Virus record (IMG/VR): IMGVR_UViG_3300016484_000738
Location: 1-33,067 of that record
DNA: 33,067 bases
Strand: one strand, 5' to 3'
Origin: a virus
Taxonomy: Duplodnaviria; Caudoviricetes
The notes below the pieces were generated by a model. That model was not told the origin of the DNA. It saw only the letters and a list, made by a program, of their open reading frames with translations, and did no database searches. Below, piece after piece: positions 1 to 28,385 of the stretch; the stretch's first letter is position 1; each line of letters opens with the position of its first letter. The position numbers were made by a program, and so were the translations under genes.

Positions 1-597
1 CCCGGCCGCGATGCGGATCCGGCCGAGGTCGCGCGCCTGGTCACGGTGGAAGTCGCCCGCCAGGTCGCCGAGATCGAGATCCCGACGCCGGCGCCGTTGA
101 CGCCCGCCGACCTGCGACCGCTCGTCGGCGAGGTCGTAAACGCCGAAGTGGCCCGCCAGGTCGAGGCGATCGAGCCGGCGCGTGACGGCCGCGGCATAGC
201 CGGCGCGCTGGTCGACGGCGACGGCGCGCTCGTGCTCACGCTCACCGACGGATCGACCCTCAAAGCGGGTCGCGTCACCGGCCGCGACGGCGCCGATCTC
301 GAGGATCTGCAGCTCACGACCGACGACGGCCGCACGTTCCGCCTCGAGGCCAAGGCCGGCGGCCGTCGCGTCTCGTGCACCTTCAAATGGCCGGGCGTCG
401 TCGATCGCGGCATCTGGCGCGAGCGCGCCTATGACGCCGGCGACGGCGTCACCTACAAGGGCAGCTATTGGCTGGCCGAGCGCGAGACCGACCGCCGGCC
501 CGGCGACGACGACTCGGGCTGGCGGCTCGCCGTCAAGCGCGGGCGCGACGGCCGCCCCGATCGCCGCACGCCGGCGCTGCAGCATGGGGCGATCTGA
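1..597 (+). CDS. Head-module protein, 5'-truncated (GRDG-repeat protein that commonly follows the major capsid gene)
   Basis: Frame open from base 1; repeated EVARQV and RDG motifs; C-terminal RGIW..YDAGDGVTYKGSYW..GWRLAVKRGRDG segment seen in phage head-region proteins; stop overlaps next ATG. Confidence 0.6.
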   Translation, partial: PGRDADPAEVARLVTVEVARQVAEIEIPTPAPLTPADLRPLVGEVVNAEVARQVEAIEPARDGRGIAGALVDGDGALVLTLTDGSTLKAGRVTGRDGADLEDLQLTTDDGRTFRLEAKAGGRRVSCTFKWPGVVDRGIWRERAYDAGDGVTYKGSYWLAERETDRRPGDDDSGWRLAVKRGRDGRPDRRTPALQHGAI

Positions 598-956
598 TGC
601 CAGCGACCCTCATCACCGTGACCGAGGCGGGCGAGCACCTGCGCCTCGATCTCAATCTCGTTGCAGCGTCGCCCGTCACCTATGACGACGAGCGATTGCC
701 GGCCCTGCTGGTCAAGATGGCCGCGGCCGAGGCGATCATCCTCGACTATCTGAAAGTCGATCCCGCCGCGATGACCTCATCGCCGCCGACCTGGCCGGCC
801 AAGCCGCGCGATCTCGAGGTCGTGCGGGCGGCGATCCTGCTCATCCTCTCGGCGCTCTGGGACGATGCGCCCGAGCGAACGGTCGCCGACTACATGAAAC
901 GCGACGGCACCGTCGCGCTGCTGCTCGCCCGTCTCAGGGATCCGGCCATCGCATGA
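597..956 (+). CDS. Head-tail connector (HK97 gp6/SPP1 gp15-like)
   Basis: TGATG coupling at 595-599; LITVTEAGEHLRLD..AAEAIILDYL..VVRAAILLILSALWD pattern; position. Confidence 0.85.
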   Translation: MPATLITVTEAGEHLRLDLNLVAASPVTYDDERLPALLVKMAAAEAIILDYLKVDPAAMTSSPPTWPAKPRDLEVVRAAILLILSALWDDAPERTVADYMKRDGTVALLLARLRDPAIA

Positions 957-1633
957 CCCCGTTCCCGACAGAGACCGTCGTGCGGCGCTGGCACGGCGAC
1001 GAGACGATCGTCGTCGCCGCGACCGGCCCCTCGCTAACGCCCGACGTGGCGCAGGCCGTCGCCGGCTATCCGGTCGTCGCCGTTTCCGACGCCTGGCGCC
1101 TCATTCCCGAGGCGGCGATCCTCTATTCGTGCGACGCCGCCTGGTGGCGCGTGCACGACGGCTGCCGCACGTTCGCCGGCGAGCGCTGGTCGTGCCACGG
1201 CGGCAACGACCGCAACGACAAGGCGCCGATCGCCCGCGACTATGGCGTGCGCCTGGTCGCCGGTGCGCTGGGCGACACGTTCTCGACCGACCCGACGCGC
1301 ATCCATTTCGGCAACAATTCCGGGTTTCAGGCGATCAACCTCGCGCTGCTGATGGGTGCGCGGCGCCTGGTGCTGGTCGGGTTCGACATGCGCGTCGTCG
1401 ACAGCAAACGCCATTTTTTCGGCGATCACCCGCGCCCGCTCAGCAACGCGATCGATTACCGCTATTTCGCGCCGCAGTTCCTCGCCGCTGCCCGCGCGCT
1501 CGCGCCCGACGTGACCATTCTCAACGCCACGCCCGACAGTGCGCTTAAAGCCTGGCCGATCGTGCCGCTCGGCGACGCGCTCGCGCCGCACCGCCATCAC
1601 GTCGCAGCCAACGCCGACCAGGTGCTCGCATGA
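953..1633 (+). CDS. Glycosyltransferase-like protein (Maf/DUF115/MptE-like, sialyltransferase-type GT-A fold)
   Basis: VVAATGPSL, VVAVSDA, NSGFQAINLALLMGARRLVLVGFDM..HF and ILNAT motifs; ATGA coupling on both sides. Confidence 0.7.
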   Translation: MTPFPTETVVRRWHGDETIVVAATGPSLTPDVAQAVAGYPVVAVSDAWRLIPEAAILYSCDAAWWRVHDGCRTFAGERWSCHGGNDRNDKAPIARDYGVRLVAGALGDTFSTDPTRIHFGNNSGFQAINLALLMGARRLVLVGFDMRVVDSKRHFFGDHPRPLSNAIDYRYFAPQFLAAARALAPDVTILNATPDSALKAWPIVPLGDALAPHRHHVAANADQVLA

Positions 1634-2421
1634 AAACGGCGCTCCTCCTCGTGCGCTCGGGCCTGGCGCATCATGTCAAATGGGCCGACGCCTTCGCCGA
1701 GGGGCTCGAGCGGCACGGGATCCGTCCCGTGATCTCGACGGCCTGGGCCCCGTCCGATCTGCTCGTCGTCTGGGGCGTGCGCGCGCAATACGAGTTCGAG
1801 CTGCAGCGCCGTTATGGGCAAATTTGCGTGCTCGAGCGCGGCTATCTCGGCGACCGCTTCGAGTGGACGAGCGTCTCGTTCGGCGGCGGCCTCAATGGCT
1901 GGGGCGAGTTCCGCGGGCCCTCCTACCGAGCCCGGTTCGAGGAGCATTTCGGGCACCTGTTCAAGCCCTGGCGCACGCACGACGCCGGCGACGTGCTGAT
2001 CTGCGGCCAGGTCGCCGGCGACGCCTCGCTCGTCGACTGCGATATCGAGAAATTCTATGTGCGCGCACGCACGGCATTCGAGGCGCAGGGGCACACCGTG
2101 CGATTCCGCGAGCACCCGGCGAGCCTGGCGTCGCGCCTGGCGCCGCGCCGCTCGCTCGCCGACGATCTCGCGACGGCGCGCTGTGTCGTGACCTGGAACA
2201 GCAACAGCGCCGTCGAGGCGGTGCTCGCCGGCGTGCCGGCCGTCGTGATGAACCGCGGCGGCATGGCCTGGCCGGTCGCCGGGCACGAGCTCGCGCTGCC
2301 CCCGAAACCGGATCGCACGGCCTGGGCGCATCGCCTCGCCTGGTGCCAGTGGCGCGAGTTCGAAATGCGTTCCGGCGCCTGCTGGGACTCGGTCGGGCGC
2401 CATATGGAGGCCGTCGCGTGA
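1630..2421 (+). CDS. Glycosyltransferase-like protein (KpsS/KpsC capsule-synthesis-like GT-B)
   Basis: VLERGYL, GQVAGDASL, FREHP, VVTWNSNSAVEAVLAGVP match the E.G(Y/F), Q...D, HP and NS....EA...G.P motifs of the KpsS/KpsC family. Confidence 0.7.
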   Translation: MKTALLLVRSGLAHHVKWADAFAEGLERHGIRPVISTAWAPSDLLVVWGVRAQYEFELQRRYGQICVLERGYLGDRFEWTSVSFGGGLNGWGEFRGPSYRARFEEHFGHLFKPWRTHDAGDVLICGQVAGDASLVDCDIEKFYVRARTAFEAQGHTVRFREHPASLASRLAPRRSLADDLATARCVVTWNSNSAVEAVLAGVPAVVMNRGGMAWPVAGHELALPPKPDRTAWAHRLAWCQWREFEMRSGACWDSVGRHMEAVA

Positions 2422-2831
2422 TCGGCGCCCGTCTCGATCGCCGGATCTCGATCCTGCGCAAGTCGATCACGCTCCTCGCCTCGGGCGAGCCGGTCGAGGC
2501 CTGGTCGCCGATCGCGATCTCGATCGCCGCCTCGATCGCGCCCATGAGTGGCGAGGAGCGTTTCGCCGGCGACCAGTTCGTCGCGCGCGAACAGGTCGAG
2601 ATCCGCGTGCGCTGGCGTGCGGCGCTCGTCGATCTCTCCCCGCTCGATCGCATCGTCGAGCCGGCACTCTCGCTCGTCGAGCTCGCGGGATCGCCGCCCG
2701 ACACCGTGCTCGAGGGCGAGATCAGCGATCGCCGGCAACTCGAGATCATGGCTGCGCACGAGCTCGGCCGCCGCGAGGGCTGGCGGATCCTCGCCGCCCG
2801 CCGCGTCGATCAACTGACGATCAGCACATGA
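2418..2831 (+). CDS. Head closure/head-tail adaptor (SPP1 gp16-like)
   Basis: GTG at 2418 overlapping previous stop, GGAGG upstream; LDRRISI..GE...W..ASIAPMSGEERF..IRVRWR motif. Confidence 0.85.
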   Translation: MIGARLDRRISILRKSITLLASGEPVEAWSPIAISIAASIAPMSGEERFAGDQFVAREQVEIRVRWRAALVDLSPLDRIVEPALSLVELAGSPPDTVLEGEISDRRQLEIMAAHELGRREGWRILAARRVDQLTIST

Positions 2832-3247
2832 CAGCCGTCAAAGACATTCGCCCGGGCCTGCGCGCGTACCTCCTCGCCGACGGCGCAATCGCCGCACTGA
2901 TCGGGCCGCGCATGTTCCCCTCGATCCTGCCGCAGGGGATCAATGCGCCGTCGCTCGTCTATCAACGCATATCGGGTTTCGGCGATCATCACATGCAAGG
3001 GCCCTCGGGCTATGCCGTCGCGCGCGTGCAGGTGCGCGCCTGGTCGTTGAACCTCGAAACGAGCGAGGGCCTGGCAAACCTGGTCAAGGGGCGCCTCGAC
3101 GGGTTTCGCGGCACGTTCGGTTCGGGCCCGACGGCAGTGCGCGTGCTCGGCATTTTTTACGAGCAGGAGAATCCGCCCGACTTCGACACGGGCCGCAGTC
3201 TGCACGGCATCGGCCGCGATTACATGATCCATTATCAGGAGCGCTGA
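2828..3247 (+). CDS. Tail terminator/completion protein (DUF3168-like)
   Basis: LLADGAIAALIGPRMFP..LPQ..PSLVYQRIS..RVQVRAW pattern; position. Confidence 0.8.
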   Translation: MTAVKDIRPGLRAYLLADGAIAALIGPRMFPSILPQGINAPSLVYQRISGFGDHHMQGPSGYAVARVQVRAWSLNLETSEGLANLVKGRLDGFRGTFGSGPTAVRVLGIFYEQENPPDFDTGRSLHGIGRDYMIHYQER

Positions 3248-3251
3248 CACG

Positions 3252-3782
3252 ATGGGCGTCACGCGCACGACGGTCAAGGTCGAGGGGCTCAAAGAGCTGC
3301 AGGCCGCGCTCGAGGATCTGCCGAAAGCGACCAGCCGCAACGTTCTGCGCCGCGCGCTGCTCGCCGGCGCCGCGCCGATCGAGGCCACGGCCGAGCAACT
3401 GGCGCCGGTCAAGACGGGCGCACTGCGCACGTCGCACACGGCGGGCACCAAGCTCTCGCGGCGGCAGAAGGCGGTGCACCGGCAATGGGCGGGACAGCAA
3501 CCGGCCGAGCGCACGGCGCAAGGCTTCCGCTCGAAACCGTCCGACGCGGTCTATGTGTTCGTCGGCCCAGGCGGCATGCCGCAGGCGATCACCCAGGAAT
3601 TCGGCACCGTCGACCATGCCGCGCACCCGTTCATGCGCCCGGCCTGGGATCAGAATCAGCACCGCGCGCTGCAGATCGTCGTCGAGCGCATCGCGGTCGA
3701 GATCCAGACCGCGGTCGCGCGCATCGCCCGCAAGGCCGAGCGCGAGGCCGCGAAGATCAAAGCGACGACGACCAAGCCGTGA
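3252..3782 (+). CDS. HK97 gp10-family tail morphogenesis protein
   Basis: VEGLKEL..L, APVKTGALR, QEFGT...AAHPFMRPAWD motifs. Confidence 0.9.
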   Translation: MGVTRTTVKVEGLKELQAALEDLPKATSRNVLRRALLAGAAPIEATAEQLAPVKTGALRTSHTAGTKLSRRQKAVHRQWAGQQPAERTAQGFRSKPSDAVYVFVGPGGMPQAITQEFGTVDHAAHPFMRPAWDQNQHRALQIVVERIAVEIQTAVARIARKAEREAAKIKATTTKP

Positions 3783-3838
3783 TCGGCCGGGCGTCACCCT
3801 TCACTGCAAACCCGCTTCACCCCGAGGAGACCTAACCC

Positions 3839-4279
3839 ATGACGACGAATGCCCTGATCGGTCACGGCGCCACGTTCCAATTGCTCGACGAGACGCTCTC
3901 GCCGCCGGCCTATGTGACCGTCGCCGAGGTCACCAACATTTCGTCGCCGTTCGCGATCTCGCGCGACTCGGTCGAGGTCACGCATACCGAGAGCACCGAT
4001 GGGATTCGCGAGTTCATTCCCGGCCTGGTCGATTACGGCGACGCCTCGATCGAGCTCAATTGGGTGCCGAAGTCGACGACCGACAAGCGCATTCGCGACC
4101 TCTTCCGCACCAAGGCGCTCTCGTCGGCGAAGATCGTGTTTCCGACCTCGCCGGCCTCGACCCTGACGTTCGATTGCTTCGCCACGGCCTACAGCCCGGG
4201 CGCGCCGCTCGACGACAAGCTGACGGCGTCGGCGACGTTCAAGATCTCGGGCCGCCCGGTCTTCACCGGCGAAGTCTAA
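3839..4279 (+). CDS. Major tail tube protein
   Basis: GAGGAG RBS; VAEVTNIS..SRDSVEVTHTES..REFIPGLVDYG..TFKISGRP pattern. Confidence 0.9.
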   Translation: MTTNALIGHGATFQLLDETLSPPAYVTVAEVTNISSPFAISRDSVEVTHTESTDGIREFIPGLVDYGDASIELNWVPKSTTDKRIRDLFRTKALSSAKIVFPTSPASTLTFDCFATAYSPGAPLDDKLTASATFKISGRPVFTGEV

Positions 4280-4349
4280 TCCGCAGGCCGCGCTGGGAAA
4301 CCGGCGCGCCCGCTCACCATCACCAAAGCAACCCGCGGGGGCACTATCC

Positions 4350-4736
4350 ATGAGCAATACCCAGACCGGCAAGATCGACGTCGTCGCCGACGGCAAAACC
4401 TGGTCGCTGCAATTCTCGATCAACGGGCTCTGCGTCCTCGAGGCGGATCTCGGCGCGTCGGATCTGACCGACATCATGGGACGCATGGGCGCGACGCCCT
4501 CGCTCACCATGCTGCGCACCATGTTCTGGGCGGGTCTCGCCGAGCATCACCAGGGCATCACGAAAGAAGAGGCCGGCCGCATCATGCAGGCCGTCGGCCT
4601 GCAGCGCGCGACCGAGGTCGTAAGCCTGGCGCTCATGTCGGCGCTCGGCGTCGCGAACGGAGCGGCCGGCCCTTTAGCGGTGCCGGCGACCGCGGGCGGC
4701 GCGACCTCGACACCGCTCACCGCCGCGATTGGCTGA
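4350..4736 (+). CDS. Tail assembly chaperone, short form (GTA gp10-like)
   Basis: Between tail tube and tape measure; LQFSINGLCVLE..LR..FWAGL motif. Confidence 0.85.
   Translation: MSNTQTGKIDVVADGKTWSLQFSINGLCVLEADLGASDLTDIMGRMGATPSLTMLRTMFWAGLAEHHQGITKEEAGRIMQAVGLQRATEVVSLALMSALGVANGAAGPLAVPATAGGATSTPLTAAIG
4670..4676 (+). other. -1 programmed ribosomal frameshift site C CCT TTA
   Basis: X XXY YYZ heptamer in frame (codons CCT 4671, TTA 4674); the -1 frame is open to 5014. Confidence 0.85.
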
Positions 4737-5014
4737 CGCTGCTCGAGCAGTGGGTCGAGCTCGGGCTCGATCCCGAGCAGTTCTGGCGCCTGACGCCGCG
4801 CGTCATGCTGGTGATCGCCGCCGGCGCCCGCCGGCGCCAGGCCGCCGAGCACAACCGCGACGCTTGGCTCGCCTGGAATATCGTCGCGCTCGATCGCGCG
4901 CGACGGCTTCCGCCGCTCAAGAGCCTGCAGATCGACCCGGATCGGCCGGCCGTGAAGCGCGCGCAGACCTGGCGCGAACAGCTCGCGATTGCGCGCCAGC
5001 TCGCCCTGCACTGA
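4670..5014 (+). CDS. Tail assembly chaperone, frameshifted C-terminal extension (long form 4350-5014)
   Basis: -1 frame reads ..DWLTLLEQWVELGLDPEQFWRLTPR..AWLAW, the typical GLxPxxFWxLTP chaperone motif. Confidence 0.85.
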   Translation, partial: PFSGAGDRGRRDLDTAHRRDWLTLLEQWVELGLDPEQFWRLTPRVMLVIAAGARRRQAAEHNRDAWLAWNIVALDRARRLPPLKSLQIDPDRPAVKRAQTWREQLAIARQLALH

Positions 5015-5035
5015 GATCATAGGATCGCCGCACGC

Positions 5036-6883
5036 ATGTCGACCCCATCAGTCATCGGCGCACTGCGCGTCGTGCTCGGCGCCGATACCGCCCAGCTCGA
5101 CACGGCATTCAAGGACAGCGTCAAGAAGGCCGCGCAGTTCGGCGTCGACATGGGCAAGGCCGCGGCGACGGCGGTCGCGGCGTTCGCCGCCGTCGGCGCG
5201 GCGGTCGCCCATGCCGTCACCAATGCGCTCGGCGAGATCACGCAAATGTCGCGGCTCTCGCAGTCGATCGGCGTTCCGATCGAGCAGCTGCAGATGCTGA
5301 AACATGCCGCCGAGCAATCGGGCGTTTCGCTGCAGACGCTCGGCCAGGGCTTCAAGGATCTGGCGCAGAAAATGAACGAGGCCGCCGGCGACAAGGCCTC
5401 GGGCCCGGCGCGCGCGTTCACGGCGCTGGGCGTCTCGATCACCGATGCCTCGGGCCGCCTCAAGAGTTCCGAGCAGGTCATGCTCGACGTCGCGCAGAAG
5501 TTTTCCGGCCTGCAGGACGGCGCCAACAAAACCGCACTCGCCGTGCATATGTTCGGCGAATCCGGCGCGCAACTGATCCCGTTCTTGAACCAAGGCCGCG
5601 ACGGGATCAGCCAGCTCGGCGACCAGGCCCGGCAGTTCGGCCTGGTGCTCGACGGACAGACCATCGCCGCGGCTGATCGGTTCAACGTCAACCTGCAGCA
5701 GATTTGGAAAACGAAAGACGCACTCGCGACGATGCTCGCGGCGAAGCTGGCGCCGGCGCTCGAGCGCCTATCCGAGCGGTTCCTCGCCTATGTGACCGAC
5801 GCCAAGAAAAGCGATGAGATGACGTCGCTGCTCGTCGGCTCGTTCAAGGTGCTGGTGACGACCCTCGAGATCGTCGGCGCTGGGATCGCGATCGTTCGCA
5901 CCGTGTTGAGCAACTTATGGGCGAGCCTCACGAACGATCGGTCGATCGAGGACGTCGCCGCCCGCATGCAAAAGATCTTCGCCGAGATCAAGGGCACCGT
6001 CGGCGGCACCGCGCAAGAGATAATCCAGACCTGGAACGGCTGGGCGCCGACGGTCACGAAAGCGGCCGACACGACCGTCAAGGCGCTGGCGCCGGCGATC
6101 GAGTCCTCGGCGCAGATGGCCGAGCGTCTGGCGCGCGCGCGCGCCGAGCTGCAGGCCCTCGTGCAGGCGCCGACCGACAATTTCGCCGAGAAGATGGTCG
6201 CGATCCAGAACGCAGTGAATGCAGGCCTTATCCCCGTGTCGCAGTCGATCCAGATGACGACGCAGGTCTATGGCCAGATGCGCACCGAAGCGCGCGCCAC
6301 GCTCGACGAGCTCGTCAATGCGCCGCTCGAAACCTACACGACGAAAATGCAGGCCGTGCAGGGCGCGCTGCAGGACGGCACGATATCCATGCGCGAGTAC
6401 GGCAAGACGACGAAGGCGATCAACGAGGAGAACGTCGGGCACATGCAGGCCCTCGCCTCGGCCGTGTCGTCGTCGCTGACGGCGATCTTCGGCAAGTCGA
6501 AAACCGCGGCGATCGCCTCGGCCGTGATCAACACCGCCCAGGCCGTGACGAAAAACCTCTCGCAGTATCCCCAGCCCTATGGTGGCATCATGGCCGCGCT
6601 CGCCGCCGCGACCGGCGCCGCCCAGATCGCCCAAATCAAGTCGACCAATCTCTCGAGCGGCGGCAGCGCCGCACCCGCGCCGGCGCCGAGCGCACCGGCA
6701 CCGGCCGCGGCTGCAGAGCCCGCCGCGAGCAGCCTCGCCGGGCCTGCAGGCCTCAATCAGACGCTGACCGTAAGCGGCCTCGACGCCGGGCAGTTTTTCG
6801 GCGGCGAGGCCGTGCGCCGCCTCGCCGAGAAGCTCCTCGACTATCAACGCAACGGCGGCACCGTCGTGCTGGGATCTCGCTGA
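5036..6883 (+). CDS. Tape measure protein (615 aa)
   Basis: IGALRVVLGADTAQ N-terminus; long Ala-rich helical sequence; follows chaperone. Confidence 0.92.
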   Translation: MSTPSVIGALRVVLGADTAQLDTAFKDSVKKAAQFGVDMGKAAATAVAAFAAVGAAVAHAVTNALGEITQMSRLSQSIGVPIEQLQMLKHAAEQSGVSLQTLGQGFKDLAQKMNEAAGDKASGPARAFTALGVSITDASGRLKSSEQVMLDVAQKFSGLQDGANKTALAVHMFGESGAQLIPFLNQGRDGISQLGDQARQFGLVLDGQTIAAADRFNVNLQQIWKTKDALATMLAAKLAPALERLSERFLAYVTDAKKSDEMTSLLVGSFKVLVTTLEIVGAGIAIVRTVLSNLWASLTNDRSIEDVAARMQKIFAEIKGTVGGTAQEIIQTWNGWAPTVTKAADTTVKALAPAIESSAQMAERLARARAELQALVQAPTDNFAEKMVAIQNAVNAGLIPVSQSIQMTTQVYGQMRTEARATLDELVNAPLETYTTKMQAVQGALQDGTISMREYGKTTKAINEENVGHMQALASAVSSSLTAIFGKSKTAAIASAVINTAQAVTKNLSQYPQPYGGIMAALAAATGAAQIAQIKSTNLSSGGSAAPAPAPSAPAPAAAAEPAASSLAGPAGLNQTLTVSGLDAGQFFGGEAVRRLAEKLLDYQRNGGTVVLGSR

Positions 6884-7712
6884 TGATCGTCCTCTCGCAG
6901 GCCCTGGTGCTGGCGCCCGCCGGCGCCCAGCTCAACACACCCGTTTTCGGCTGGGACTCGCTCGTCACGTCGTCGAGCGTCTCGGCCTCGAGCGCGGCAT
7001 CTGGCTATCCCGCGAGCGATCTCGCCAATCCGTCGACCGTGCTGTTCTGGCGCGCGGCCGAGACCTCGCCGCCGGCCGACGTCTATCTGACCGTCGACGT
7101 CGGCCAGGTCGACCCGATCGATTATGTCGCCGTCGCCGCGCACAATTTCGGCTCGGCCGGAATCGCCGTCTCGGTCGAGATCGCGACCGGGCTCGCGGGC
7201 TCGCCGCCGGCGCTCGTTTGGACGGAGGTCGTCACGCCGCGCCTCGTGGTGCGCGACGATCCGCTGATCTTCCGGTTCGCGCCGACCTCGGTCGTCGGCG
7301 TGCGCCTGCGCCTGCAGCCCGGCACGGCACCGGCGCAAGCCGCGGTGCTCTATGCCGGGCGCCTGCTCGTGATGCCGCGCGGCACGTCCGACTCGCATGT
7401 GCCGATAAACTTCGCCCGCGTGACGAAGCGCCTGCGCCAGACCAGCGCCAACGGACATTTTCTCGGCGAGATCCTGCTCGCCGAAGCCCGGCAGAGCGGG
7501 ATCGGGTTCAAATATCTCGAGCAGGCGTGGTTCCGCGAGACCATGCGGCCCTTCCTCGACGCCGCTCGCGTCGTTCCGTTCTTCTTCGCGTGGAAGCCGC
7601 AGCAATGGCCCGACGACGTCGGTTTCTGCACGCTCTCGAATGACCCGCAGCCGACGGTCGATTTCTCGACGCAGCGCATTGCGATCGACCTGCAGCTCGA
7701 GGGCGTGGCGCT

Positions 7713-7716
<4 letters not shown>
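6883..7716 (+). CDS. Tail protein (distal-tail position)
   Basis: TGATG coupling at 6881-6885; MIVLSQAL..PFFFAWKP; directly after tape measure. Confidence 0.75.
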
Positions 7717-9989
<2,273 letters not shown>

Positions 9990-10012
9990 CACCCGAGAAA
10001 CGGAATCGAGAT

Positions 10013-11263
10013 ATGGCATTCGCACGCTGCGAATTCGTGGTTCAGGACGCGGCCGGCAACATCGTGCCGGGCGCCGAGATCACCGTGCGCCGCGAGGTCG
10101 CCGGCGCGCCGCTCGCGACGCTGTACTCGGATCGAGACGGCGCGACGCCGCTCGCCAATCCGCACACCATCGGCAGCAACGGCAAGGTCGCGTTCCATGC
10201 CGCCGGCGGCGCCTATCGCATCACCGCGACGTCGGGCGCGTTCTCGGCAGAGTGGCGATACATGGCAATCGGCACCGCGGCCGAGCACGACATTCTCTCG
10301 ACGACGATCGCGCATCTCGGCATTGTCGGCCTGCATTTCGCGTTCGACACGGCGACCGCCGACGCAAATCCGGGCACCGGCAACCTGCGTGCCAATTCCG
10401 CCGATCTGACCGCCGCGACCTGGCTCTACATTTCGGAGACCGATGCCAGCGGCAACGCGATTGCGGCGCTGCTCGGCGCCTGGGACGACTCGACCTCCTC
10501 GATCAAGGGGCAGATCGGGATCAAGGCGTCGCAGGATCCGAGCCGCGTCGTCGTGTTCAACGTGACGGGCGCGGTCGTCGACGGCGGTGATTATCGCAAG
10601 GTGCCGATCGCGTTCGTCGGCCCGACGCTCGTCGACACGTCGCCCTATGCTGCCGCCGACGCGCTCGACGTTTCGTTTCAGCGCACCGGCGACAAAGGCG
10701 ACACGGGCGCCACGGGTGCGACGGGCGCCACGGGTGCGCAAGGGCCCGCCGGCGCAGCAGGCGCCACGGGTGCGCAAGGGCCGGCAGGCGCGGCTGGCGC
10801 TACGGGCGCGACTGGCGCCACGGGTCCAGCCGGTGCAGGCGTGGCACCTGCATCGGCGCGCGTGACGAAGTCGGCGGCCCAGAGCATCGCCAACGCGACC
10901 GTAACGACGGTGACCTGGGACGCGGAAACCTGGGATGCAACGGGCATGCACGACAACGCGACCAACAACTCGCGGCTGACCGCGCAGGTCGCCGGCAAGT
11001 TCCTGGTTTCCGTCGGCATCATCTTTGCGAGCAACAACACCGGGATTCGGCAGCTCATCTTTCGAAAGAACGGCACTCAGTTCGCGGCGCAGATCTTCCC
11101 GAACAACAACGCCGGCGAGGATCAATGTTTCCTGACGACGGCGATCGACTTGGCCGTGAACGATTATGTCGACGTGCAGGTCTATCAGGCGAGCGGCGGC
11201 GCGCTCAACATCAACGGCGGCGCGCTGGGTTGCTCGGCCGCCATGATTCGGGTCGACGCCTGA
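10013..11263 (+). CDS. Tail fibre/receptor-binding protein with collagen-like stalk and C1q/TNF-like head
   Basis: ATG 10013; Gly-X-Y run at about 10688-10840; C-terminal beta-rich domain (QSI..VTWD..RLTA..GKFLV..RKNG..L..NDYVDVQVYQ). Confidence 0.8.
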   Translation: MAFARCEFVVQDAAGNIVPGAEITVRREVAGAPLATLYSDRDGATPLANPHTIGSNGKVAFHAAGGAYRITATSGAFSAEWRYMAIGTAAEHDILSTTIAHLGIVGLHFAFDTATADANPGTGNLRANSADLTAATWLYISETDASGNAIAALLGAWDDSTSSIKGQIGIKASQDPSRVVVFNVTGAVVDGGDYRKVPIAFVGPTLVDTSPYAAADALDVSFQRTGDKGDTGATGATGATGAQGPAGAAGATGAQGPAGAAGATGATGATGPAGAGVAPASARVTKSAAQSIANATVTTVTWDAETWDATGMHDNATNNSRLTAQVAGKFLVSVGIIFASNNTGIRQLIFRKNGTQFAAQIFPNNNAGEDQCFLTTAIDLAVNDYVDVQVYQASGGALNINGGALGCSAAMIRVDA

Positions 11264-11288
11264 TCGCACAGAGAACGCAGGAGGCATC

Positions 11289-11783
11289 ATGACATTGCAA
11301 CGCATCGACGCAATCCAGACCGACGACCACGGCCGACCCCTGCGCCGCGTGACGCGCTACGTCGAGCGCGGCGCAGGTGGCGCGCGGGTCGGCGTCGCTG
11401 TGCCCGCCCAGGTCGAGCCTGGGCCTGCCGGCCTCGCGTCCGACCCGGGCCCGAGTGGCCTCGATCAGGCAGGCGGCGAGATCGATCTCGACCAGACCGA
11501 GACCGTGCGCGGATTGCGGCGCGAAATCGCCGAGCTCGCCGCCGCGAAACTGCAGATCGATGCGGCGATCGCGCGGCTCGGCGAGCGCCTCGAGGCCATT
11601 GCCCGGCGGCCGATGCCGACGCCGGCGCCGCCGATCGAGCGCGCGCCGGTCGATCTCACACCGCTGCAGTCGGCGCAAGCGCTGCTCGATCGGCGCGTCG
11701 ATGCGATCGAGCAGGCGCTCGGCGCGCTGGGCGCGATGGGCGCTGCAGCCGCGGCAGCCGATGCGGCCAAGCAAGGCAGGTGA
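11289..11783 (+). CDS. Hypothetical coiled-coil protein
   Basis: GGAGG RBS; coupled to endolysin start; no family recognised. Confidence 0.65.
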   Translation: MTLQRIDAIQTDDHGRPLRRVTRYVERGAGGARVGVAVPAQVEPGPAGLASDPGPSGLDQAGGEIDLDQTETVRGLRREIAELAAAKLQIDAAIARLGERLEAIARRPMPTPAPPIERAPVDLTPLQSAQALLDRRVDAIEQALGALGAMGAAAAAADAAKQGR

Positions 11784-12490
11784 TCATGCTCTCGCAACGC
11801 TCGCACGCAGCTCTCACCGGCGTGCACCCTGACCTAGCCCGCGTGATCGAGGCCGCCAGCCACGGCGCCCGCTTCCATGTGACCGAGGGCCTGCGCTCGA
11901 TCGATCGGCAGCACCAGCTACTGGCCGCCGGCAAATCGACAACGATGAAGTCGCGGCACCTGACCGGGCACGCCGTCGACCTGGTCGCGGTGACGGCCGC
12001 CGGCGCCGTTTCATACGCCGACGCCGATATGCGCGCGCTGGCGGCAGTCGTGAAGCGGGCGGCGCAATCGCTGGGCGTCCCGATCGAGTGGGGCGGCGAC
12101 TGGAAACAATTCTGCGACACGCCGCATTTCCAGCTGCCGCACCGGATCTATCCGACCGCAGAGCCGGCCGACGTCACCGGTTCGCCCTGGCAGCAGCAGG
12201 TGACACCGGAGCAATCGCCGCCCGACCAGGCGCCGAGCGCTGGGCCGCCGGCGCAGGGTAAGACCGGCATCACCGAAGTCGCCGGCGTTCTGACGGCCGG
12301 CTCGCCGGTGCCCATGGTGACCGAGGCCGCCGGTTCCATGTCGCGGCTCAATGCCAAGGGCAAGGCCTGGCAGATCGTCGACCTGGTGCTCGATCTGCTG
12401 ACGTCGCCCGTGTTCGTCACGGCCTGCATCACCGCCGCCGGCGGCGCCTACATTTTGTTGAAACGCCGCGCACAAAAGAGAGTGCCTTGA
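11780..12490 (+). CDS. Endolysin, M15-family Zn peptidase with C-terminal hydrophobic tail
   Basis: EGLRS..RQ, SRHLTGHAVD, WGGDW..DTPHFQ motifs; alternative start ATG 11786. Confidence 0.9.
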   Translation: MIMLSQRSHAALTGVHPDLARVIEAASHGARFHVTEGLRSIDRQHQLLAAGKSTTMKSRHLTGHAVDLVAVTAAGAVSYADADMRALAAVVKRAAQSLGVPIEWGGDWKQFCDTPHFQLPHRIYPTAEPADVTGSPWQQQVTPEQSPPDQAPSAGPPAQGKTGITEVAGVLTAGSPVPMVTEAAGSMSRLNAKGKAWQIVDLVLDLLTSPVFVTACITAAGGAYILLKRRAQKRVP

Positions 12491-12491
12491 C

Positions 12492-12926
12492 ATGCTGCCA
12501 GCATTCCTCGTGCCGCTCCTCGACAGGCTCGCGCTCGGCCAGGCGGTCGCGCGCGTCAAGAGCCTGGCGACGGGCCCGGTCGTCGTCTCGATCGCGATCG
12601 CGACCGTCGTCGTGACGCTCGCGATCTGCGCGGCGTGGCTCCGATCCGACGCGCGTCGCGATGCGGCGATCGCGTGCGATCTGCGCGAGCATAAGCGACA
12701 GATCGCGGCGGCGCTCACGCGAGAAACGGCGCTGATGCGTGCGGGCAACGAGAAAGACATCGAACTATTGCGCCGCGCGAAGCAGGCGCGCGACGCGGAA
12801 TCCGAACAACAGCGCATCAGCGCGGAAATGGAGGCGCTACGTGAAAAAAGCAAACTTGAAGCGGCTGGCCGTGGGTGTGTGCCTGCTGACGACGAGTGGC
12901 TGCGCGGGCGATCCAAAGCCCGTTGA
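12492..12926 (+). CDS. Inner-membrane spanin (Rz-like)
   Basis: TM segment VVVSIAIATVVVTLAICAAWL, then coiled coil and a C-terminal Cys; overlaps a lipoprotein gene. Confidence 0.7.
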   Translation: MLPAFLVPLLDRLALGQAVARVKSLATGPVVVSIAIATVVVTLAICAAWLRSDARRDAAIACDLREHKRQIAAALTRETALMRAGNEKDIELLRRAKQARDAESEQQRISAEMEALREKSKLEAAGRGCVPADDEWLRGRSKAR

Positions 12927-13236
12927 GCTCGCCGCGCCCGTCGTCGTCGATCTCGCGGCAGCGCGCTGCCCGCCGCTCGATCCCGCGACCGCTGCAGCGT
13001 TCGGCGCGCGTGTTGCGCGGCCCGCTGCCGATCTCACCGATGCCAACGGCCGGCGCTGGGTCTCGGCCGAGGCGATGCGATCCGGCATCGACGCGCGAGA
13101 TCTGTTGATCGAGCGCATGAGTCGCACGGGTCTCTCGCTCGCCGACAGTTATGAGCGATGCCGCGGCACACCGCCGCCGGCGCCGCAACCGCAACCGCCG
13201 CCCCGACCTCGCGCCATAGCAGCAGCGACACCATGA
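12841..13236 (+). CDS. Outer-membrane spanin lipoprotein (Rz1-like)
   Basis: GGAGG at 12830, GTG 12841; signal peptide KKANLKRLAVGVCLLTTSG-C; Pro-rich mature part; overlaps the i-spanin 3' end. Confidence 0.7.
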   Translation: MKKANLKRLAVGVCLLTTSGCAGDPKPVELAAPVVVDLAAARCPPLDPATAAAFGARVARPAADLTDANGRRWVSAEAMRSGIDARDLLIERMSRTGLSLADSYERCRGTPPPAPQPQPPPRPRAIAAATP

Positions 13237-13263
13237 GCCGCACAATCCCGATCGAGCATCGCT

Positions 13264-13707
13264 ATGCAGCACCGCCCCGGCTCCAATCCCTGGCCGGTCG
13301 AGCACGACCTGCACCCGTCGACACCGCCGTCGGGCGAGCGCCTGGCGAGGCTCGAGGTCGTGACCCAGCACCTGACGGAACACCAGCGCGCGCAGTCGAT
13401 GCGGGTCGAGCACCAGGCCGAGGGACTCAGCCGGGCATTCCAGCGGATCGGCCTGGTCGAGACGACGATCGGACCGATGCGCGAGACTGTGGCGCGTCTC
13501 TCCGATCTGCCCGAGAGGCTACGGCGGCAGGAGGAGCTCGCCGAGGACAAGCGGCGATCGAAGCAAGAGCAGCGCGAGCTGCGCCGGGAAGCCATGGCGA
13601 CGGTTCAGTGGCTGCTGTTCCTGGCGTTGATCGTGGGCTCGATCCTCGGTCGCGTGCCGGCCGACGTATTGAAGGCGGCCGGCCCTGCTTTGGGGTTCGG
13701 CAAATGA
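13264..13707 (+). CDS. Membrane protein, possible holin
   Basis: ERLARLE coiled coil plus C-terminal TM segment; in lysis cassette. Confidence 0.5.
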   Translation: MQHRPGSNPWPVEHDLHPSTPPSGERLARLEVVTQHLTEHQRAQSMRVEHQAEGLSRAFQRIGLVETTIGPMRETVARLSDLPERLRRQEELAEDKRRSKQEQRELRREAMATVQWLLFLALIVGSILGRVPADVLKAAGPALGFGK

Positions 13708-13817
13708 TGATGCTCGCGCGCCTGGCGCGCGCGTGGCGTCTGCCCACCGGCTGGATCCCGACGGCGGCGCTCGGCGCCGCAATCGTCGCCGCCCTTGCCG
13801 CCGCTCTGGCGCAGTGA
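13704..13817 (+). CDS. Small hydrophobic protein (37 aa)
   Basis: ATGA/GTGA coupling at both ends; one TM-like segment. Confidence 0.45.
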   Translation: MMMLARLARAWRLPTGWIPTAALGAAIVAALAAALAQ

Positions 13818-14044
13818 CAACGCCCGCAATTCCTCTCGACGATCCGCCGCCGTTCGCCTGCGGCGGCGTTCTGTTCTCGTGTTACCGGCTCGACGCTGGC
13901 GGTTATGTCTGGCGCTCGCCCGACGGCCGCATTGCGTGCGGGCGATGGCTTGGTCGCTACGTCGTCAAACTCGACGGGCGACTGATCGGCGAGGGGCGCA
14001 CATTGCGCGAGGTCATGAGGCTCGGCGTTCTTCGCCTCGCCTGA
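13814..14044 (+). CDS. Hypothetical protein
   Basis: GTG coupled to previous stop; ends just before a hairpin. Confidence 0.55.
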   Translation: MTTPAIPLDDPPPFACGGVLFSCYRLDAGGYVWRSPDGRIACGRWLGRYVVKLDGRLIGEGRTLREVMRLGVLRLA

Positions 14045-14065
14045 CGAGCGTCGGCTGCCTCAAAT

Positions 14066-14099
14066 GACAACGGCCCAGCGGATGCGCTGGGCCGTTGTC
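14066..14099. terminator. Hairpin between convergent operons
   Basis: Perfect 15-bp stem GACAACGGCCCAGCG/CGCTGGGCCGTTGTC, loop GATG. Confidence 0.75.
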
Positions 14100-14122
14100 G
14101 GTTGAGTGGTGGGCAACTCCTG

Positions 14123-14374
14123 TTAGGTGGCGGGCTCGTACGTCGCGGCGAAAATGTCGGGCTTGCAGGGATACAATTCACCCTTCACGCCTCGAATGAT
14201 CCAGTCGCCAGGGACGGCCTGCATTGTGCCCTCCAGGGTCTGGATCAGCATTGTGCCGTCTTCGGGATAGCGCACGCGCCCGGCGATCACGTCGTCGGCA
14301 AACGCGCCGTCCTGCTCGCCCGCGCGGAACTGCACGGCTTCGATCACAACAGGCTTCTTTCGATACTTCGGCAT
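14123..14374 (-). CDS. Widespread small phage protein (KKPV..TLEG..PGDWII..YPCKPDIF family), function unknown
   Basis: Recognisable conserved motif; CAGGAG RBS. Confidence 0.85.
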   Translation of the reverse strand: MPKYRKKPVVIEAVQFRAGEQDGAFADDVIAGRVRYPEDGTMLIQTLEGTMQAVPGDWIIRGVKGELYPCKPDIFAATYEPAT

Positions 14375-14391
14375 GTGGTGGGGATCTCCTG

Positions 14392-14559
14392 TTAGTTTAT
14401 AAGGACGGTGTATCGGTCAGCGCCAACAACTATTGCCCTGCGTTCAGCCCACTCTTCGGCGGCCTGTCGCGTCGCGAACTTCGCAGCCGTGCCGCCGCGA
14501 CCTTTGACGGTCACAACCCAATCGCCAGAAATCGTCTCGAACACGTAGACCTGCGGCAT
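14392..14559 (-). CDS. 55-aa hypothetical protein, copy 2
   Basis: MPQVYVFETISGDWVVTVKG..; near-identical paralogue at 14836-15003. Confidence 0.75.
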   Translation of the reverse strand: MPQVYVFETISGDWVVTVKGRGGTAAKFATRQAAEEWAERRAIVVGADRYTVLIN

Positions 14560-15003: not shown

Positions 15004-15058
15004 CGCGCGGGCGGTCCTGTTGCTGGGCGGCGAACGCCGCTTCTCTCATCTGTGGAGC

Positions 15059-15088
15059 ACTATACATTGGGCTTGCAGCTTTCGTCAA
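15059..15088 (-). promoter_or_regulatory. Sigma70-like promoter for the leftward island genes
   Basis: Minus strand TTGACG-N18-TATAGT. Confidence 0.65.
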
Positions 15089-15108
15089 GCTGTGAGAAAC
15101 TTTTGCAC

Positions 15109-15987
15109 ATGAAAGCTGTTGACGCAAATAGGGGTTGGGTGCGCGGGTCTCGCCGAGCACCGCTTCGCGCCCAAATCAAACTGCTCCGCGCGGCAGGCGT
15201 CGAGACGATTTACAATGCCGAAGAGCAGACGGTTGACTCTCTGGTGCGCGCACTTCGATTGGGCGACGAGGTCAAAGTGACAACGCTTGCACGCCTCGCG
15301 AAGCACCGTCGCGATCTCGGCCGCATCGTCGATGCGATCCACGATAAGGGTGCCGTCGTCGTCGAAGTGGTCTCCGGCCGGCGCAGCGACAATGCGCGCG
15401 ACCACGCCAAGATGATCTTTGATGCCGTCGACGAAATAGCCAGCGACGGGCGCGGGCTTCCGTCCGAGGTTGCGAAGACGTTCGGCAAGATGGGTGCAGC
15501 CGCACGGGCTGCAACTCTGGAAGCAGCCAGGATGCCCCGGCACGAGGCAGAAAAGCATTGGTTCGACGCGAGGAACGCCACCACTGGCGATGCGCTGGCC
15601 AAAATGCCGGGATGGGCACTGCCTGCCGCATACAAGTATTTTGGCCCTCGCAAACTCGGTGCCGGTCGCCCCCGTCGCACAGCCATTGCGGAGCGTCCAG
15701 GAGATGCGCCTCGGCTGGTTGCGGGCTCTGTCTATTTCCTTCTCTGCTCCGACAACCGTGTCAAGATCGGCACAACGACGAACATCAAGCACCGCATGAG
15801 CGGCATTCAGAACGGCCAGAGCGACGAGGTGAAGTTGCTCGTTGAAATTCAGGGCAGCTACGAGACAGAAAAAGCTCTGCATCAGCAGTTCAAGCGCTAC
15901 CGAATTCGTGGCGAATGGTTCAGGTATGAAGGAAAGTTGAAAACCTACGTCGGCAACCTCATGAAGAAGAAGCCGACAGCAACATGA
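15109..15987 (+). CDS. Serine recombinase (resolvase)-like domain fused to a C-terminal GIY-YIG/T5orf172-like domain
   Basis: GWVRGS..Q..L..G...LRLGD.V.V..LARL..DL..IV resembles the resolvase catalytic domain; VYFL..VKIGTT..R..E..LH..F..RIRGEWF is the T5orf172/MUG113 signature. Confidence 0.7.
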   Translation: MKAVDANRGWVRGSRRAPLRAQIKLLRAAGVETIYNAEEQTVDSLVRALRLGDEVKVTTLARLAKHRRDLGRIVDAIHDKGAVVVEVVSGRRSDNARDHAKMIFDAVDEIASDGRGLPSEVAKTFGKMGAAARAATLEAARMPRHEAEKHWFDARNATTGDALAKMPGWALPAAYKYFGPRKLGAGRPRRTAIAERPGDAPRLVAGSVYFLLCSDNRVKIGTTTNIKHRMSGIQNGQSDEVKLLVEIQGSYETEKALHQQFKRYRIRGEWFRYEGKLKTYVGNLMKKKPTAT

Positions 15988-15988
15988 T

Positions 15989-16018
15989 GGAGACCACCAA
16001 TGAGCGAAGGCGATCAGT
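15989..16018 (+). repeat. 30-bp direct repeat, copy 1 (RBS + first 6 codons)
   Basis: GGAGACCACCAATGAGCGAAGGCGATCAGT identical to 16816-16845. Confidence 0.95.
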
Positions 16019-16413
16019 ACATCGGACGCACACTCGAAAGCATGAAAGACGAGTTCAACCCATCGATGACGTTCCAGCGGTTCAGCGCGATCAACAACGC
16101 GCGCTGCCGCGACGGCTTCAAGCACGATCCGGCGACGTGGTCGGCATCCGATTGGATGGTCGCCACCATGGGTGAGCTTGGCGAGGCCGCGAACGTCCTG
16201 AAGAAGCTGAACCGTGAGCGCGACGGCATCAAGGGCAACACGGCGACTGCGCAAGTGCTCAAAGAAAAGTTGGCGAGCGAGTTGGCTGACACGTTCATTT
16301 ATCTCGACCTGATGTCGCAAGCGCTCGGCATCGACCTCGAAAGCGCGGTGCGCCGGACGTTCGACGCCAAGTCGCGCGAGATCGGCTATCCCCACATGAT
16401 CGACCGTCAATAA
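16000..16413 (+). CDS. MazG-like nucleotide pyrophosphohydrolase 1
   Basis: GELGEAANVLKK..ELADTFIYLDL..GIDLE (EXXE..EXXD). Confidence 0.85.
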   Translation: MSEGDQYIGRTLESMKDEFNPSMTFQRFSAINNARCRDGFKHDPATWSASDWMVATMGELGEAANVLKKLNRERDGIKGNTATAQVLKEKLASELADTFIYLDLMSQALGIDLESAVRRTFDAKSREIGYPHMIDRQ

Positions 16414-16429
16414 GCAGGAGACTTTCACG

Positions 16430-16816
16430 ATGGGTTACATGACAGATGGCGTCACGTTCAACGTGCTGCGCGGCGCGAACAAGCGTCGGCAGCAAGAGTG
16501 GCCGGGCAACGAGAAGGCCGACGTGGCATTCCGTGCGATCGAAGTTGCCGGCGAAGCTGGCGAGGTCGCCGAGGCCGTCAAGAAGCTCTTGCGCGCCGAA
16601 CGCGGCATCAAGGGCAGCACCGCGACGAAAGACGACGTTGCAGACGAGATGGGCGACTTGCTCGTGTCTCTCGATCTGTTGGCCGAAGCGCTCGGCATCG
16701 ACCTTGGCCGCGCCGTCGAACGCAAGTTCAACCGCACGTCGGACAAGTACGGCATGCGCACATACATCGACGGCGGCGACTGGCATCTGAAGCCTGTCGA
16801 AGCCCTCAAGCAGTAG
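16430..16816 (+). CDS. MazG-like nucleotide pyrophosphohydrolase 2
   Basis: GEAGEVAEAVKK..DEMGDLLVSLDL..GIDL..KFN. Confidence 0.85.
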   Translation: MGYMTDGVTFNVLRGANKRRQQEWPGNEKADVAFRAIEVAGEAGEVAEAVKKLLRAERGIKGSTATKDDVADEMGDLLVSLDLLAEALGIDLGRAVERKFNRTSDKYGMRTYIDGGDWHLKPVEALKQ

Positions 16817-24823: not shown

Positions 24824-24931
24824 CCAGGCCGCGAGGCATCGCGCGCGGGCCGCCCGGTGCGGCGCAGATGGGCAGTGCGCCCGAGGGGACAGATCAGGAC
24901 GAGACGGCCAGACCAGCGCGGGAAACACGAC

Positions 24932-25456
24932 ATGCACCAGCAGACCACGGGAAAATACGGCGACGAGGTCGTCGCCTTCATACGAGAGCAGCTGCAGGAC
25001 GGGCGCAGCTTCACGTCGATCGCCGTCGCGCTGCACGACGCCGGTCACGGCACATTCACGAGCGGATCCGTCGCCGGCATCGTCTGGCGCTATATCAAGG
25101 GCAAAAGCCCGCGCGGCGAGCGGGCCGCACATATTCCGGTGCCCGTCACCGCCCCGCCGCCGCCGCCGAAACAGCGCCGAATGACGACGCTCGATCCCTG
25201 GTCGAAGCACGCCCGCGCCAACGCACACGCCGCTCTGCCGTTGCCGACCGAGGCGCCGCCCGCGCCGTCGCAGAGCCTGGTCGCGACACGCGATCTCGAG
25301 CCGCATCATTGCCGCTGGCCGTTCGGGCACCCGGGCGAGGATCATTTCGGGCATTGCGGCGCGCGTCGTGACGGCGCCGGGCCCTACTGCGGCGAACACG
25401 CCCGCCGTGCCGTGTTGCGTTCCCTCGAGGCTCCGAGCGAGGAGGCCGCGGCATGA
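24932..25456 (+). CDS. gcrA: GcrA-like transcription regulator
   Basis: N-terminal HTH (GRSFTSIA..SVAGIVWR) and C-terminal L...CRWP.G.P...CG...PYC..H. Confidence 0.85.
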   Translation: MHQQTTGKYGDEVVAFIREQLQDGRSFTSIAVALHDAGHGTFTSGSVAGIVWRYIKGKSPRGERAAHIPVPVTAPPPPPKQRRMTTLDPWSKHARANAHAALPLPTEAPPAPSQSLVATRDLEPHHCRWPFGHPGEDHFGHCGARRDGAGPYCGEHARRAVLRSLEAPSEEAAA

Positions 25457-27429: not shown

Positions 27430-27665
27430 GCACGCTCACAAACCTGCGCATCGAGGTCGACCGCACCGATACCCAGCGCCTGGCGGCCGAGCTCGCCGAC
27501 GAAGTCGCCTTTTGGAAGCAGACCGCGATCGACCTGCAGGTCGCCGTAATCCTCGGCCGCCTGCCGACCGAGGCCGACAGGCAGGGCAAGACATGGGCCG
27601 CCATGCGGTCGTGGCTCGAGGCCAACTATCACGTCAAGCGCGCGGCCCGGAGACAAACGCCATGA
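27426..27665 (+). CDS. Hypothetical protein
   Basis: ATGA coupling at both ends. Confidence 0.65.
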   Translation: MSTLTNLRIEVDRTDTQRLAAELADEVAFWKQTAIDLQVAVILGRLPTEADRQGKTWAAMRSWLEANYHVKRAARRQTP

Positions 27666-28281: not shown

Positions 28282-28385
28282 AACCGGCGGGCCGTGCGTT
28301 CGGCCCGCATCACCGATCCCCGGCACGCTTCCGCAGGGCACGCGCCGGGCCCGTCTCGCTCCGGGGGATTGGAGCGAGACGCACT

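Follow-up and report, generated by a model that had tools for sequence, protein, structure and literature searches.

The 33,067-base stretch analysed here (virus record IMGVR_UViG_3300016484_000738, hereafter the window) is a partial genome of an uncultured temperate siphophage, and its predicted virion proteins share a short Ser-Pro (SP) word, referred to below as the tag. Two predicted transferases, GT1 and GT2, are embedded in the same run of morphogenesis genes. The tag is a real, family-wide feature of these phages and is probably the acceptor for phage-encoded O-glycosylation. Its general form is [G/A/D/E/T/S]-S-P-x, a small or acidic residue followed by Ser-Pro, and SPP is the version of the window lineage. 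Strict SPP was rejected as the family motif, as its median is 0 in glycosyltransferase (GT)-positive and GT-negative groups alike.

In core virion proteins of 79 GT2-positive loci the median density of [GDETAS]SP is 3.51 per 1000 amino acids (aa); 83 loci in which no GT was detected have a median of 1.19 (Mann-Whitney 5e-17). All of these loci have at least 400 aa of such proteins. The first-pass annotation had suggested aligning relatives with and without the GT genes, and this comparison bears out the co-occurrence, the tags being about three times denser where the cassette is present. The density of TP and AP does not differ between GT2-positive and GT-negative loci. Before proline, serine alone is raised (4.06 vs 1.35), and none of Thr, Ala, Asp, Glu, Gly and Asn is. 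Overall, GT loci are slightly richer in serine (6.3 vs 5.8%).

Ser-Pro words in the virion proteins of the window

The nine words listed by the first-pass annotation were all recovered in frame, in the genes and at the positions it had named. The tag serines are S25 (codon at 669, AASPV) and S62 (codon at 780, TSSPPT) of the connector, S92 (2691) of the head closure protein, S21 (3899) and S104 (4148) of the tail tube, S62 (7066) and S107 (7201) of the probable distal tail protein (Dit), S19 (7767) of the tail tip protein and S210 (10640) of the fibre. The genes concerned and their neighbours are as follows.

597..956, plus strand: head-tail connector, 119 aa; role taken from position and family clustering, with no Pfam or PHROG match; close relatives have two or three SP sites
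953..1633, plus strand: GT1, stand-alone Maf/GT42-like domain of 226 aa, candidate initiating serine O-glycosyltransferase (PHROG 4603, E 1.9e-40; fold)
[quoted passage not shown]
2418..2831, plus strand: head closure protein; LAGSPPD at 2682-2702 in an insertion of about 25 residues (PF05521; alignment)
2828..3247, plus strand: tail terminator, untagged in the window; relatives have an inserted SP loop (PF11367)
3252..3782, plus strand: HK97-gp10-like protein, untagged; SP observed/expected 0.44 in GT2-positive loci (PF04883)
3839..4279, plus strand: lambda-like tail tube; ETLSPPA at 3890-3910 in the first hairpin turn, PTSPA at 4142-4156 (PF16461)
5036..6883, plus strand: tape measure with no SP, family observed/expected 0.64; an internal control buried in the tail (PHROG tape measure matches)
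6883..7716, plus strand: probable Dit with F5/8 type C domain; ETSPPAD at 7060-7080, LAGSPPA at 7192-7212 (weak PF00754 match)
7713..9989, plus strand: tail tip protein; DTSPPAD at 7761-7781 (PHROG 11439; alignment)
10013..11263, plus strand: tail fibre with collagen repeat; DTSPY at 10634-10648, known from the window sequence alone (PF01391)
11780..12490, plus strand: M15 endolysin, not a virion protein; QSPPD and three further SP in its C-terminal half (PF13539)

The late genes run in the order connector, GT1, GT2, head closure, terminator, gp10, tube, chaperones, tape measure, Dit, tip, fibre and endolysin. A search for a solved structural relative of the head closure protein gave none. The QSPPD of the endolysin, raised earlier as a caveat, is located at S146 (12215), and the C-terminal half of this enzyme also ends in a hydrophobic tail.

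SPP occurs six times in the 11 virion-region genes (3145 aa), for which shuffled sequences give a mean of 0.54 and reach six or more in none of 1000 shuffles. The remaining 37 genes of the window contain it once (shuffle mean 0.87). The count against a composition null, proposed with the original observation, thus finds SPP enriched in the virion-region genes and not elsewhere; TPP, APP and PP show no excess over shuffles in the window. SPP is the most extreme tripeptide (present in 5 of the 11 virion-region proteins), picked post hoc. Some tripeptide is equally extreme in 20 of 200 shuffles (p about 0.1 for the window alone), and the window by itself is therefore suggestive only. The near-identical words reported across unrelated proteins do include two shared 6-mers, but in all 13 6-mers recur across proteins of the window.

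The earlier suggestion that the words sit in insertions holds for the head closure protein and the first connector site, and extends to both Dit sites; at the second connector site the alignment is less clear. The PTSP of the tube is a short insertion relative to lambda gpV, and the DTSPPAD of the tip protein lies on a short linker in place of a longer segment of other members. Both Dit loops are longer and SP-bearing in most of the GT-positive members shown; the same loops are short and SP-free in L290, L358, P12026, 1N2-2 and GJ44, the last three being cultured phages with no GT matches. The caution that one SP is usual in the tube family proved sound, HxxSP being present in 29 of the 54 tubes from GT-positive loci and in 43 of the 51 from GT-negative ones, and SP at the first tube hairpin is also seen in phages without any transferase.

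The structural genes have a GC content of about 69%. Integrase, repressor-like, ParB, NusG, GcrA and HNH genes are present in the window; terminase, portal and capsid genes are missing. The named relatives belong to Mesorhizobium, Filomicrobium, Bauldia and other Hyphomicrobiales, and an alphaproteobacterial host is therefore likely, probably one bearing lipopolysaccharide (LPS). No sigma-70-like promoter was found within positions 1-14500. A block of lower GC (about 60%) at 15052-16816 contains a gene with resolvase-N and MUG113/T5orf172 domains followed by two MazG-like genes, and the early/late control region at 24857-30348 encodes GcrA-like, ParB-N (658 aa), NusG-like, DnaJ-domain and LexA-HTH proteins. 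Genes of the window and of all fetched loci were called by a codon model of our own, which can miss or merge genes (the GT1 of L040 was missed).

The tag among related phages

A GT2 profile was built from a 70-sequence alignment drawn from 120 listed of 461 homologues. It yielded 181 loci, of which 91 non-redundant ones of at least 4 kb were kept; single-sequence locus searches with GT2 and Dit gave no matches, and alignments were required. Controls were collected with capsid, tube and gp10 alignments (80 loci each), chosen regardless of transferases. The 360 loci of at least 4 kb were reduced to 273 non-redundant ones. With the window included, 116 loci have a transferase, 83 span capsid to tube without one and 75 were unclassable and excluded.

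Six loci (L379:4242-5003, L277, L281, L311, L365 and L381) have, after the capsid genes, a gene of 254 aa, a segment of which remotely resembles GT1 (hhalign probability 62%). This gene has no Pfam, PHROG or NCBIfam match and its phages carry few tags. Five of the six had first been counted as negative, L281 being the sixth; all were set apart together with L233, leaving 77 negatives for column counts. L464 (hhalign probability 5%) and L536 (no match) were left unclassified.

In the 91 GT2-derived loci the ratio of observed to expected SP is 2.1-2.9 in the closure, connector, capsid and tube families and about 1.4 in Dit, tip and portal; it is not raised in the GT1, GT2, tape measure and gp10 families. 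Alignments place the SP in inserted loops that differ from lineage to lineage and in added C-termini reading DGSP, ETSP or DNSP, the first two exemplified by the closure protein. SP sites fall within gappy columns in 168 of 669 cases in GT-positive loci and in 31 of 240 in GT-negative ones, and within the final three residues in 20 vs 0 cases.

Column counts separate the tag sites, near zero in the 77 negatives, from structural SPs common to both groups; the tag columns were selected from the same contrast of GT-positive and GT-negative loci that they illustrate. Two capsid columns carry the tag in 29/51 vs 0/67 and 24/51 vs 3/67 members (GT-positive vs GT-negative), and both capsid tags of these relatives are insertions relative to the RcGTA capsid protein. 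Two connector columns have it in 18/61 and 17/61 GT-positive vs 0/73 GT-negative members, the inserted terminator column in 15/65 vs 0/51 and the closure insert in 16/86 vs 1/64. The first turn of the tube has SP in 37/42 vs 3/49 and a tag column of a second tube family in 25/27 vs 3/26. At the DTSPPAD column of the tip, SP is found in 17 of 26 GT-positive members.

The residue before the tag serine, over 334 sites, is Ala in 28%, Gly in 22%, Asp, Thr or Ser in 10% each and Glu in 6%, with Asp frequent two to four positions upstream; the tag proline is followed by Ala (22%), Glu (16%), Pro (15%) or Leu (12%). A 390-aa record, P0095, unites a GT2 homologue with a head closure protein bearing DTSPPT, and is either a real fusion or the result of a missed stop.

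A second sample was gathered by the motif and not by the enzyme. Viral contigs were scanned for the tube turns G-D-G-A-x-P-E and G-[DN]-G-G-x-P-E, where x could be any residue. Each scan returned at least 120 stretches (about 920 and 330 estimated), flanks were obtained for 80, and 36 and 29 were usable. Profiles detected a transferase near 7 of 18 Ser turns and 0 of 18 non-Ser turns in the first scan (p 0.008). L451 and L557 were added when 120 unlabelled genes, drawn from both classes, were scanned with Pfam. Over the two motif scans a GT accompanies 12 of 37 Ser tubes and 0 of 28 tubes whose turn has a different residue (p 0.0007); counting the L536 gene as a transferase changes p to 0.004. 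The neck proteins of these loci carry 4.26 tags per 1000 aa in 11 GT-positive and 0.66 in 51 GT-negative loci, a count from which L418, which duplicates L200, and the ambiguous L464 and L536 were dropped. The connector of L411 carries GDGASPEVW, almost identical to the tube word.

GT1, GT2 and the proposed reading of the word

The structural model of GT1 (predicted local distance difference test score, pLDDT, 93) has as its top fold match the Maf structure 5MU5 (Z 16.4, root mean square deviation (rmsd) 3.4, 186 residues aligned; Foldseek template modelling (TM) score 0.54). Further matches are HPPK (Z 11.6), a Campylobacter sialyltransferase (10.3), SteA (10.2) and thiamine pyrophosphokinase (TPK, 8.3); a closest relationship to pyrophosphokinases was rejected, HPPK and TPK both scoring below Maf. 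Against PF01973 the protein scores 21.4 bits (cutoff 34.6, E 2e-4), and 26% of the members of one near Atlas cluster carry PF01973. Weak profile matches were obtained to Cst-II (E 0.014) and to the MptE-like Pfam family. D61 and D145 are nearly invariant within the GT1 family; the catalytic residues of M. magneticum Maf are Asp324 and Glu415. From its predicted fold GT1 is likely to work like Maf, without being classed as a Maf.

In the case of GT2 (pLDDT 95) the first 14 Foldseek matches are all KpsC, WbbB and KrkA (TM 0.45-0.56, E 2e-6 to 4e-5, rmsd 7-10). Q127, D131 and P163 are invariant and H162 is conserved in at least 90% of 70 sequences; these form the QxxxD and HP motifs of KpsC/WbbB, matched by sequence. 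The available part of PMC10148158 describes a QxxxD nucleophile and HP motifs for retaining beta-Kdo transferases. The folds of GT1 and GT2 are both used by transferases of ulosonic acids activated with cytidine monophosphate (CMP).

Larger cassettes of relatives add GT-A, GT8-like, GT9-like, methyl-, acetyl- and aminotransferase genes, in keeping with the assembly and modification of a glycan. L367, L378, L181 and L567 have three tandem KpsC-like GT2 paralogues per cassette, as if for a defined oligo-ulosonate chain. An unannotated GT2 homologue is also found in a podovirus (L001:2165-6581, MW202713.1), next to a TibC-like glycosyltransferase and a methyltransferase and upstream of the terminase.

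There is good reason to expect that the tag serines are glycosylated by one route or another, and we lean towards a route in which GT1 acts first. The small/acidic-Ser-Pro loops of the virion would be the acceptors, on whose serines GT1 would place an ulosonic acid, probably Kdo from the CMP-Kdo of the host. This donor is suggested because genes for sugar synthesis are missing from the window and the host probably bears LPS. GT2 may then extend the product with beta-Kdo, giving a likely Ser-O-Kdo(-Kdo) on the virion, and the particle would end up coated with acidic sugar that changes how it sticks, how stable it is or how it is recognised, perhaps to its benefit. The tag itself probably arose from an old tube turn, GDG[AG]-x-PE, after which other virion proteins acquired it on repeated occasions. 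It is conceivable, though we would put the chance below even, that this represents a widespread group of proteobacterial phages with a two-gene system, in which a stand-alone Maf domain reads a Ser-Pro word of three to four residues present in nearly every outer protein, a KpsC-like enzyme builds Kdo, and sister clades read D-S-x-G.

GT1 is common to all seven cassettes of the first motif-first sample and to all three profile-found cassettes of the second. A supported GT1 clade of eight rows includes most of the loci rich in D-S-x-G, which occupies the tube loop in 9 of 11 GT-positive phages, D3, PMG1, PAJU2 and Psp6 included, and in 0 of 2 without GT matches. The variants DSNG, DSSG, DSDG and DSAG occur in tube and connector loops of L052, L060, L062, L063, L066, L070, L073 and L168. 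The cultured phages with D-S-x-G (D3, PMG1, PAJU2 and Psp6) correspond to L529-L531 and L655; the phages whose same tube loop is free of it, with no GT matches, are Vibrio H20 and SOVA965.

Several observations weigh against the GT1-first route. L364 has five tags and two GT-A genes but no GT1, in a record that is 85% complete. L557, a seeming negative with five tags, in fact holds four glycosyltransferases (GT2 family, group 1, PLOD-type and GT2-like) at 5179-8277 in the gap between connector and closure genes, none of them Maf-like. On the basis of these two loci the strict view that only GT1 can read the word was rejected. The cassette of L451 consists of a GT2-family gene only. Conversely, L384 and L399 have GT1 yet no tags, CcrBL9 has both genes, with SP not in excess over the part of it that was read (39 vs 35), and S20 and phiNP have GT1 with no SP excess by eye. 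GT1 is without the other domains of Maf, and besides HPPK it resembles sialyltransferases that take sugar acceptors. The endolysin, outside the virion, has 4 SP vs 1.1 expected, and the tag loops are presumed to face outward.

The sampling and descent of the loci add to this side. The second motif-first scan alone is not significant (3 of 19 Ser vs 0 of 10 non-Ser, p 0.53), and no GT was detected near 25 of the 37 Ser-type tubes, so that the tube turn predates the enzymes or is independent of them. The cassette is clumped on trees, its presence changing only 7 times on a 97-row tree of four neck and tube proteins. The resulting 7 independent pairs give 3.7 for and 0.0 against in the tube loop (median p 0.125) and 2.7 for and 1.4 against when two or more tags are scored (p 1). 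Pairs on larger single-gene trees (FastTree, with 3.5 tags per 1000 aa as the cut-off, set after the data were seen) are 6.6 for and 0.1 against of 11 for capsid (p 0.031), 5.0 and 0.1 of 8 for gp10 (0.0625), 4.5 and 0.5 of 12 for closure (0.125) and 5.6 and 0.7 of 11 for portal (0.125). Phylogeny-corrected support is modest, consistent in direction and low in power.

The first-pass annotation had proposed a tag shared by the two GT-like enzymes. Co-occurrence, serine specificity, placement in insertions and C-terminal additions and the predicted Maf and KpsC folds speak strongly for it, but the tag is not exclusive to these two enzymes, the second proline is lineage-specific and the phylogeny-corrected support is as given above. 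The link is not exclusive because L364 and L557 are tagged with other transferases present and a sister GT1 clade goes with D-S-x-G. Ser-Pro turns may suit several enzyme types as acceptors, or tags may outlast a swap of the cassette.

The same two loci favour an alternative in which the serines are glycosylated but another enzyme, a cassette GT-A or a cytoplasmic enzyme of the host, adds the first sugar and GT1 and GT2 extend or cap it. Enzymes of the GT42 and GT107 types normally take sugar acceptors, according to the accessible text of PMC10148158, and many cassettes do include GT-A, GT8, GT9, methyl- and acetyltransferases. The cassette of the window is GT1 and GT2 only, yet the contig is without head genes and a further gene may lie beyond it. 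We consider this alternative unlikely, since GT1 recurs in every GT-positive locus of the first motif-first sample as the other transferases vary, and the word shifts with the GT1 clade.

The word could also be a trait of the lineage: a beta-turn of a common kind, passed down or favoured in clades that happen to carry the cassette, and read by no enzyme. The Ser-type turns without a detected GT, the few cassette changes on the 97-row tree with most pair tests missing 0.05, and the serine content of GT loci all agree with this. It leaves unexplained the acquisition of the word by seven or more proteins at non-homologous positions, the C-terminal SP, the strict choice of Ser over Thr, Asp and Gly and the near-zero opposite pairs (0.1-0.7 of 8-12), and we regard it as a rather poor prospect.

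Ser-Pro is the site of proline-directed kinases in eukaryotes, and the word may be read for a purpose other than sugar: an MptE-like GT1 might phosphorylate or pyrophosphorylate it, or a decoration protein might dock there. GT1 does share the fold of HPPK and thiamine pyrophosphokinase (Z 11.6 and about 8) and has the weak MptE-like match, and marine phages with phosphorylated virion proteins are reported in the available portion of PMC12014285. Maf outscores HPPK by almost 5 Z units, the cassette neighbours are glycosyltransferases and glycan-tailoring enzymes, and the cassettes showed neither a kinase nor a decoration gene in common; a non-sugar role is accordingly improbable. A DNA-level repeat or codon-bias artefact of a 69% GC genome, to which the TCG CCG CCN coding of all six virion SPP sites and the 26 occurrences of the 8-mer TCGCCGCC on the plus strand of the window might point, is very improbable and largely refuted by synonymous variation, as relatives use all six Ser codons at the tag (TCG 198, AGC 103, others 110 of 411), the use of both TCN and AGY shows selection acting on the protein, and composition-preserving shuffles do not reproduce the excess.

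Comparison with known systems

Maf enzymes add pseudaminic acid, legionaminic acid, N-acetylneuraminic acid (Neu5Ac) or Kdo straight onto Ser/Thr. GT1 folds as the central domain of these flagellin O-glycosyltransferases (PF01973/Maf_flag10), but its 226 aa span only residues 253-514 of a 632-residue Maf chain. Maf proteins are multi-domain enzymes of about 600 aa in flagellar loci, whereas GT1 lies between connector and closure genes with no flagellin nearby. Placement of Neu5Ac or Kdo on Ser/Thr, using E. coli's own CMP-Kdo, is described in the available text of a preprint (10.1101/2020.06.03.131540), in which text the words 'sequon', 'consensus' and 'motif' are absent.

GT2 shares with the retaining beta-Kdo transferases KpsC (GT107), WbbB and KrkA the modified GT-B fold and the QxxxD and HP motifs. 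It differs in being a single module of 263 aa with 11-19% identity, and in lying among phage morphogenesis genes; KpsC, WbbB and KrkA act in capsule or O-antigen synthesis. Enzymes of this class take CMP-Kdo as donor, pass through a covalent Asp-Kdo adduct and act on a sugar.

GT1 homologues of PHROG 4603 with 28-37% identity are known in cultured phages (P1 pmgO region, D3 orf7, PAJU2 gp10, CcrColossus/CcrBL9 and S20), often among late genes as in the window, and phages of the CcrBL9 type retain the GT1-GT2 pair. D3/PAJU2-type phages differ in showing D-S-x-G more than SP. P1 pmgO, an annotated GT1 homologue, is non-essential for plating according to the accessible part of PMC10695390, which fits an accessory coat. 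In phage D3 (L529:5691-6409) orf7 is annotated with 152 aa, yet the GT1 match begins at 5804, under orf6.5; the PMG1 copy is annotated with 198 aa, and the D3 tube has an inserted SRDSSGSPTGD loop in addition to a DSNG loop.

If the favoured reading is true, a role would be assigned to PHROG 4603 and a Maf domain would work without flagellin. The broader two-gene reading, if true, would provide a sugar coat code on virions and a portable cytoplasmic tool for Ser-O-Kdo tagging; a small soluble enzyme reading a short tag would serve glyco-engineering. The candidate bears on how phage transferases pick their sites, with a predicted mass of +220 Da per Kdo, and the cultured homologues in D3, PMG1, PAJU2, CcrBL9 and P1 are available for genes so far without a function.

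A literature search, with subscription literature mostly outside its reach, found no paper on a Ser-Pro virion tag or on Kdo on virions, and the available parts of the JBD30 (PMC11445458) and P1 proteome (PMC9024508) papers hold nothing bearing on tags. Mycobacteriophage glycans are reported to lie at subunit C-termini. No mycobacteriophage is among the GT homologue matches listed, and no direct comparison with Che8 gp110 or Corndog gp38 was made. In the literature searched, in so far as its texts were available, virion glycosylation is documented in mycobacteriophages only, to which the window adds a minimal two-gene candidate with a short acceptor word. In Che8, Corndog and Myrna, phage glycosyltransferases modify capsid and tail tube proteins (Freeman et al. 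2023, as cited in the accessible parts of PMC12363180 and PMC10877033). The two systems are alike in having phage-encoded transferases with virion proteins as targets, both enzymes and targets being predicted in the present case; the present one differs in belonging to a proteobacterial phage, in its CMP-ulosonate-type enzymes and in an internal word that recurs in many virion proteins.

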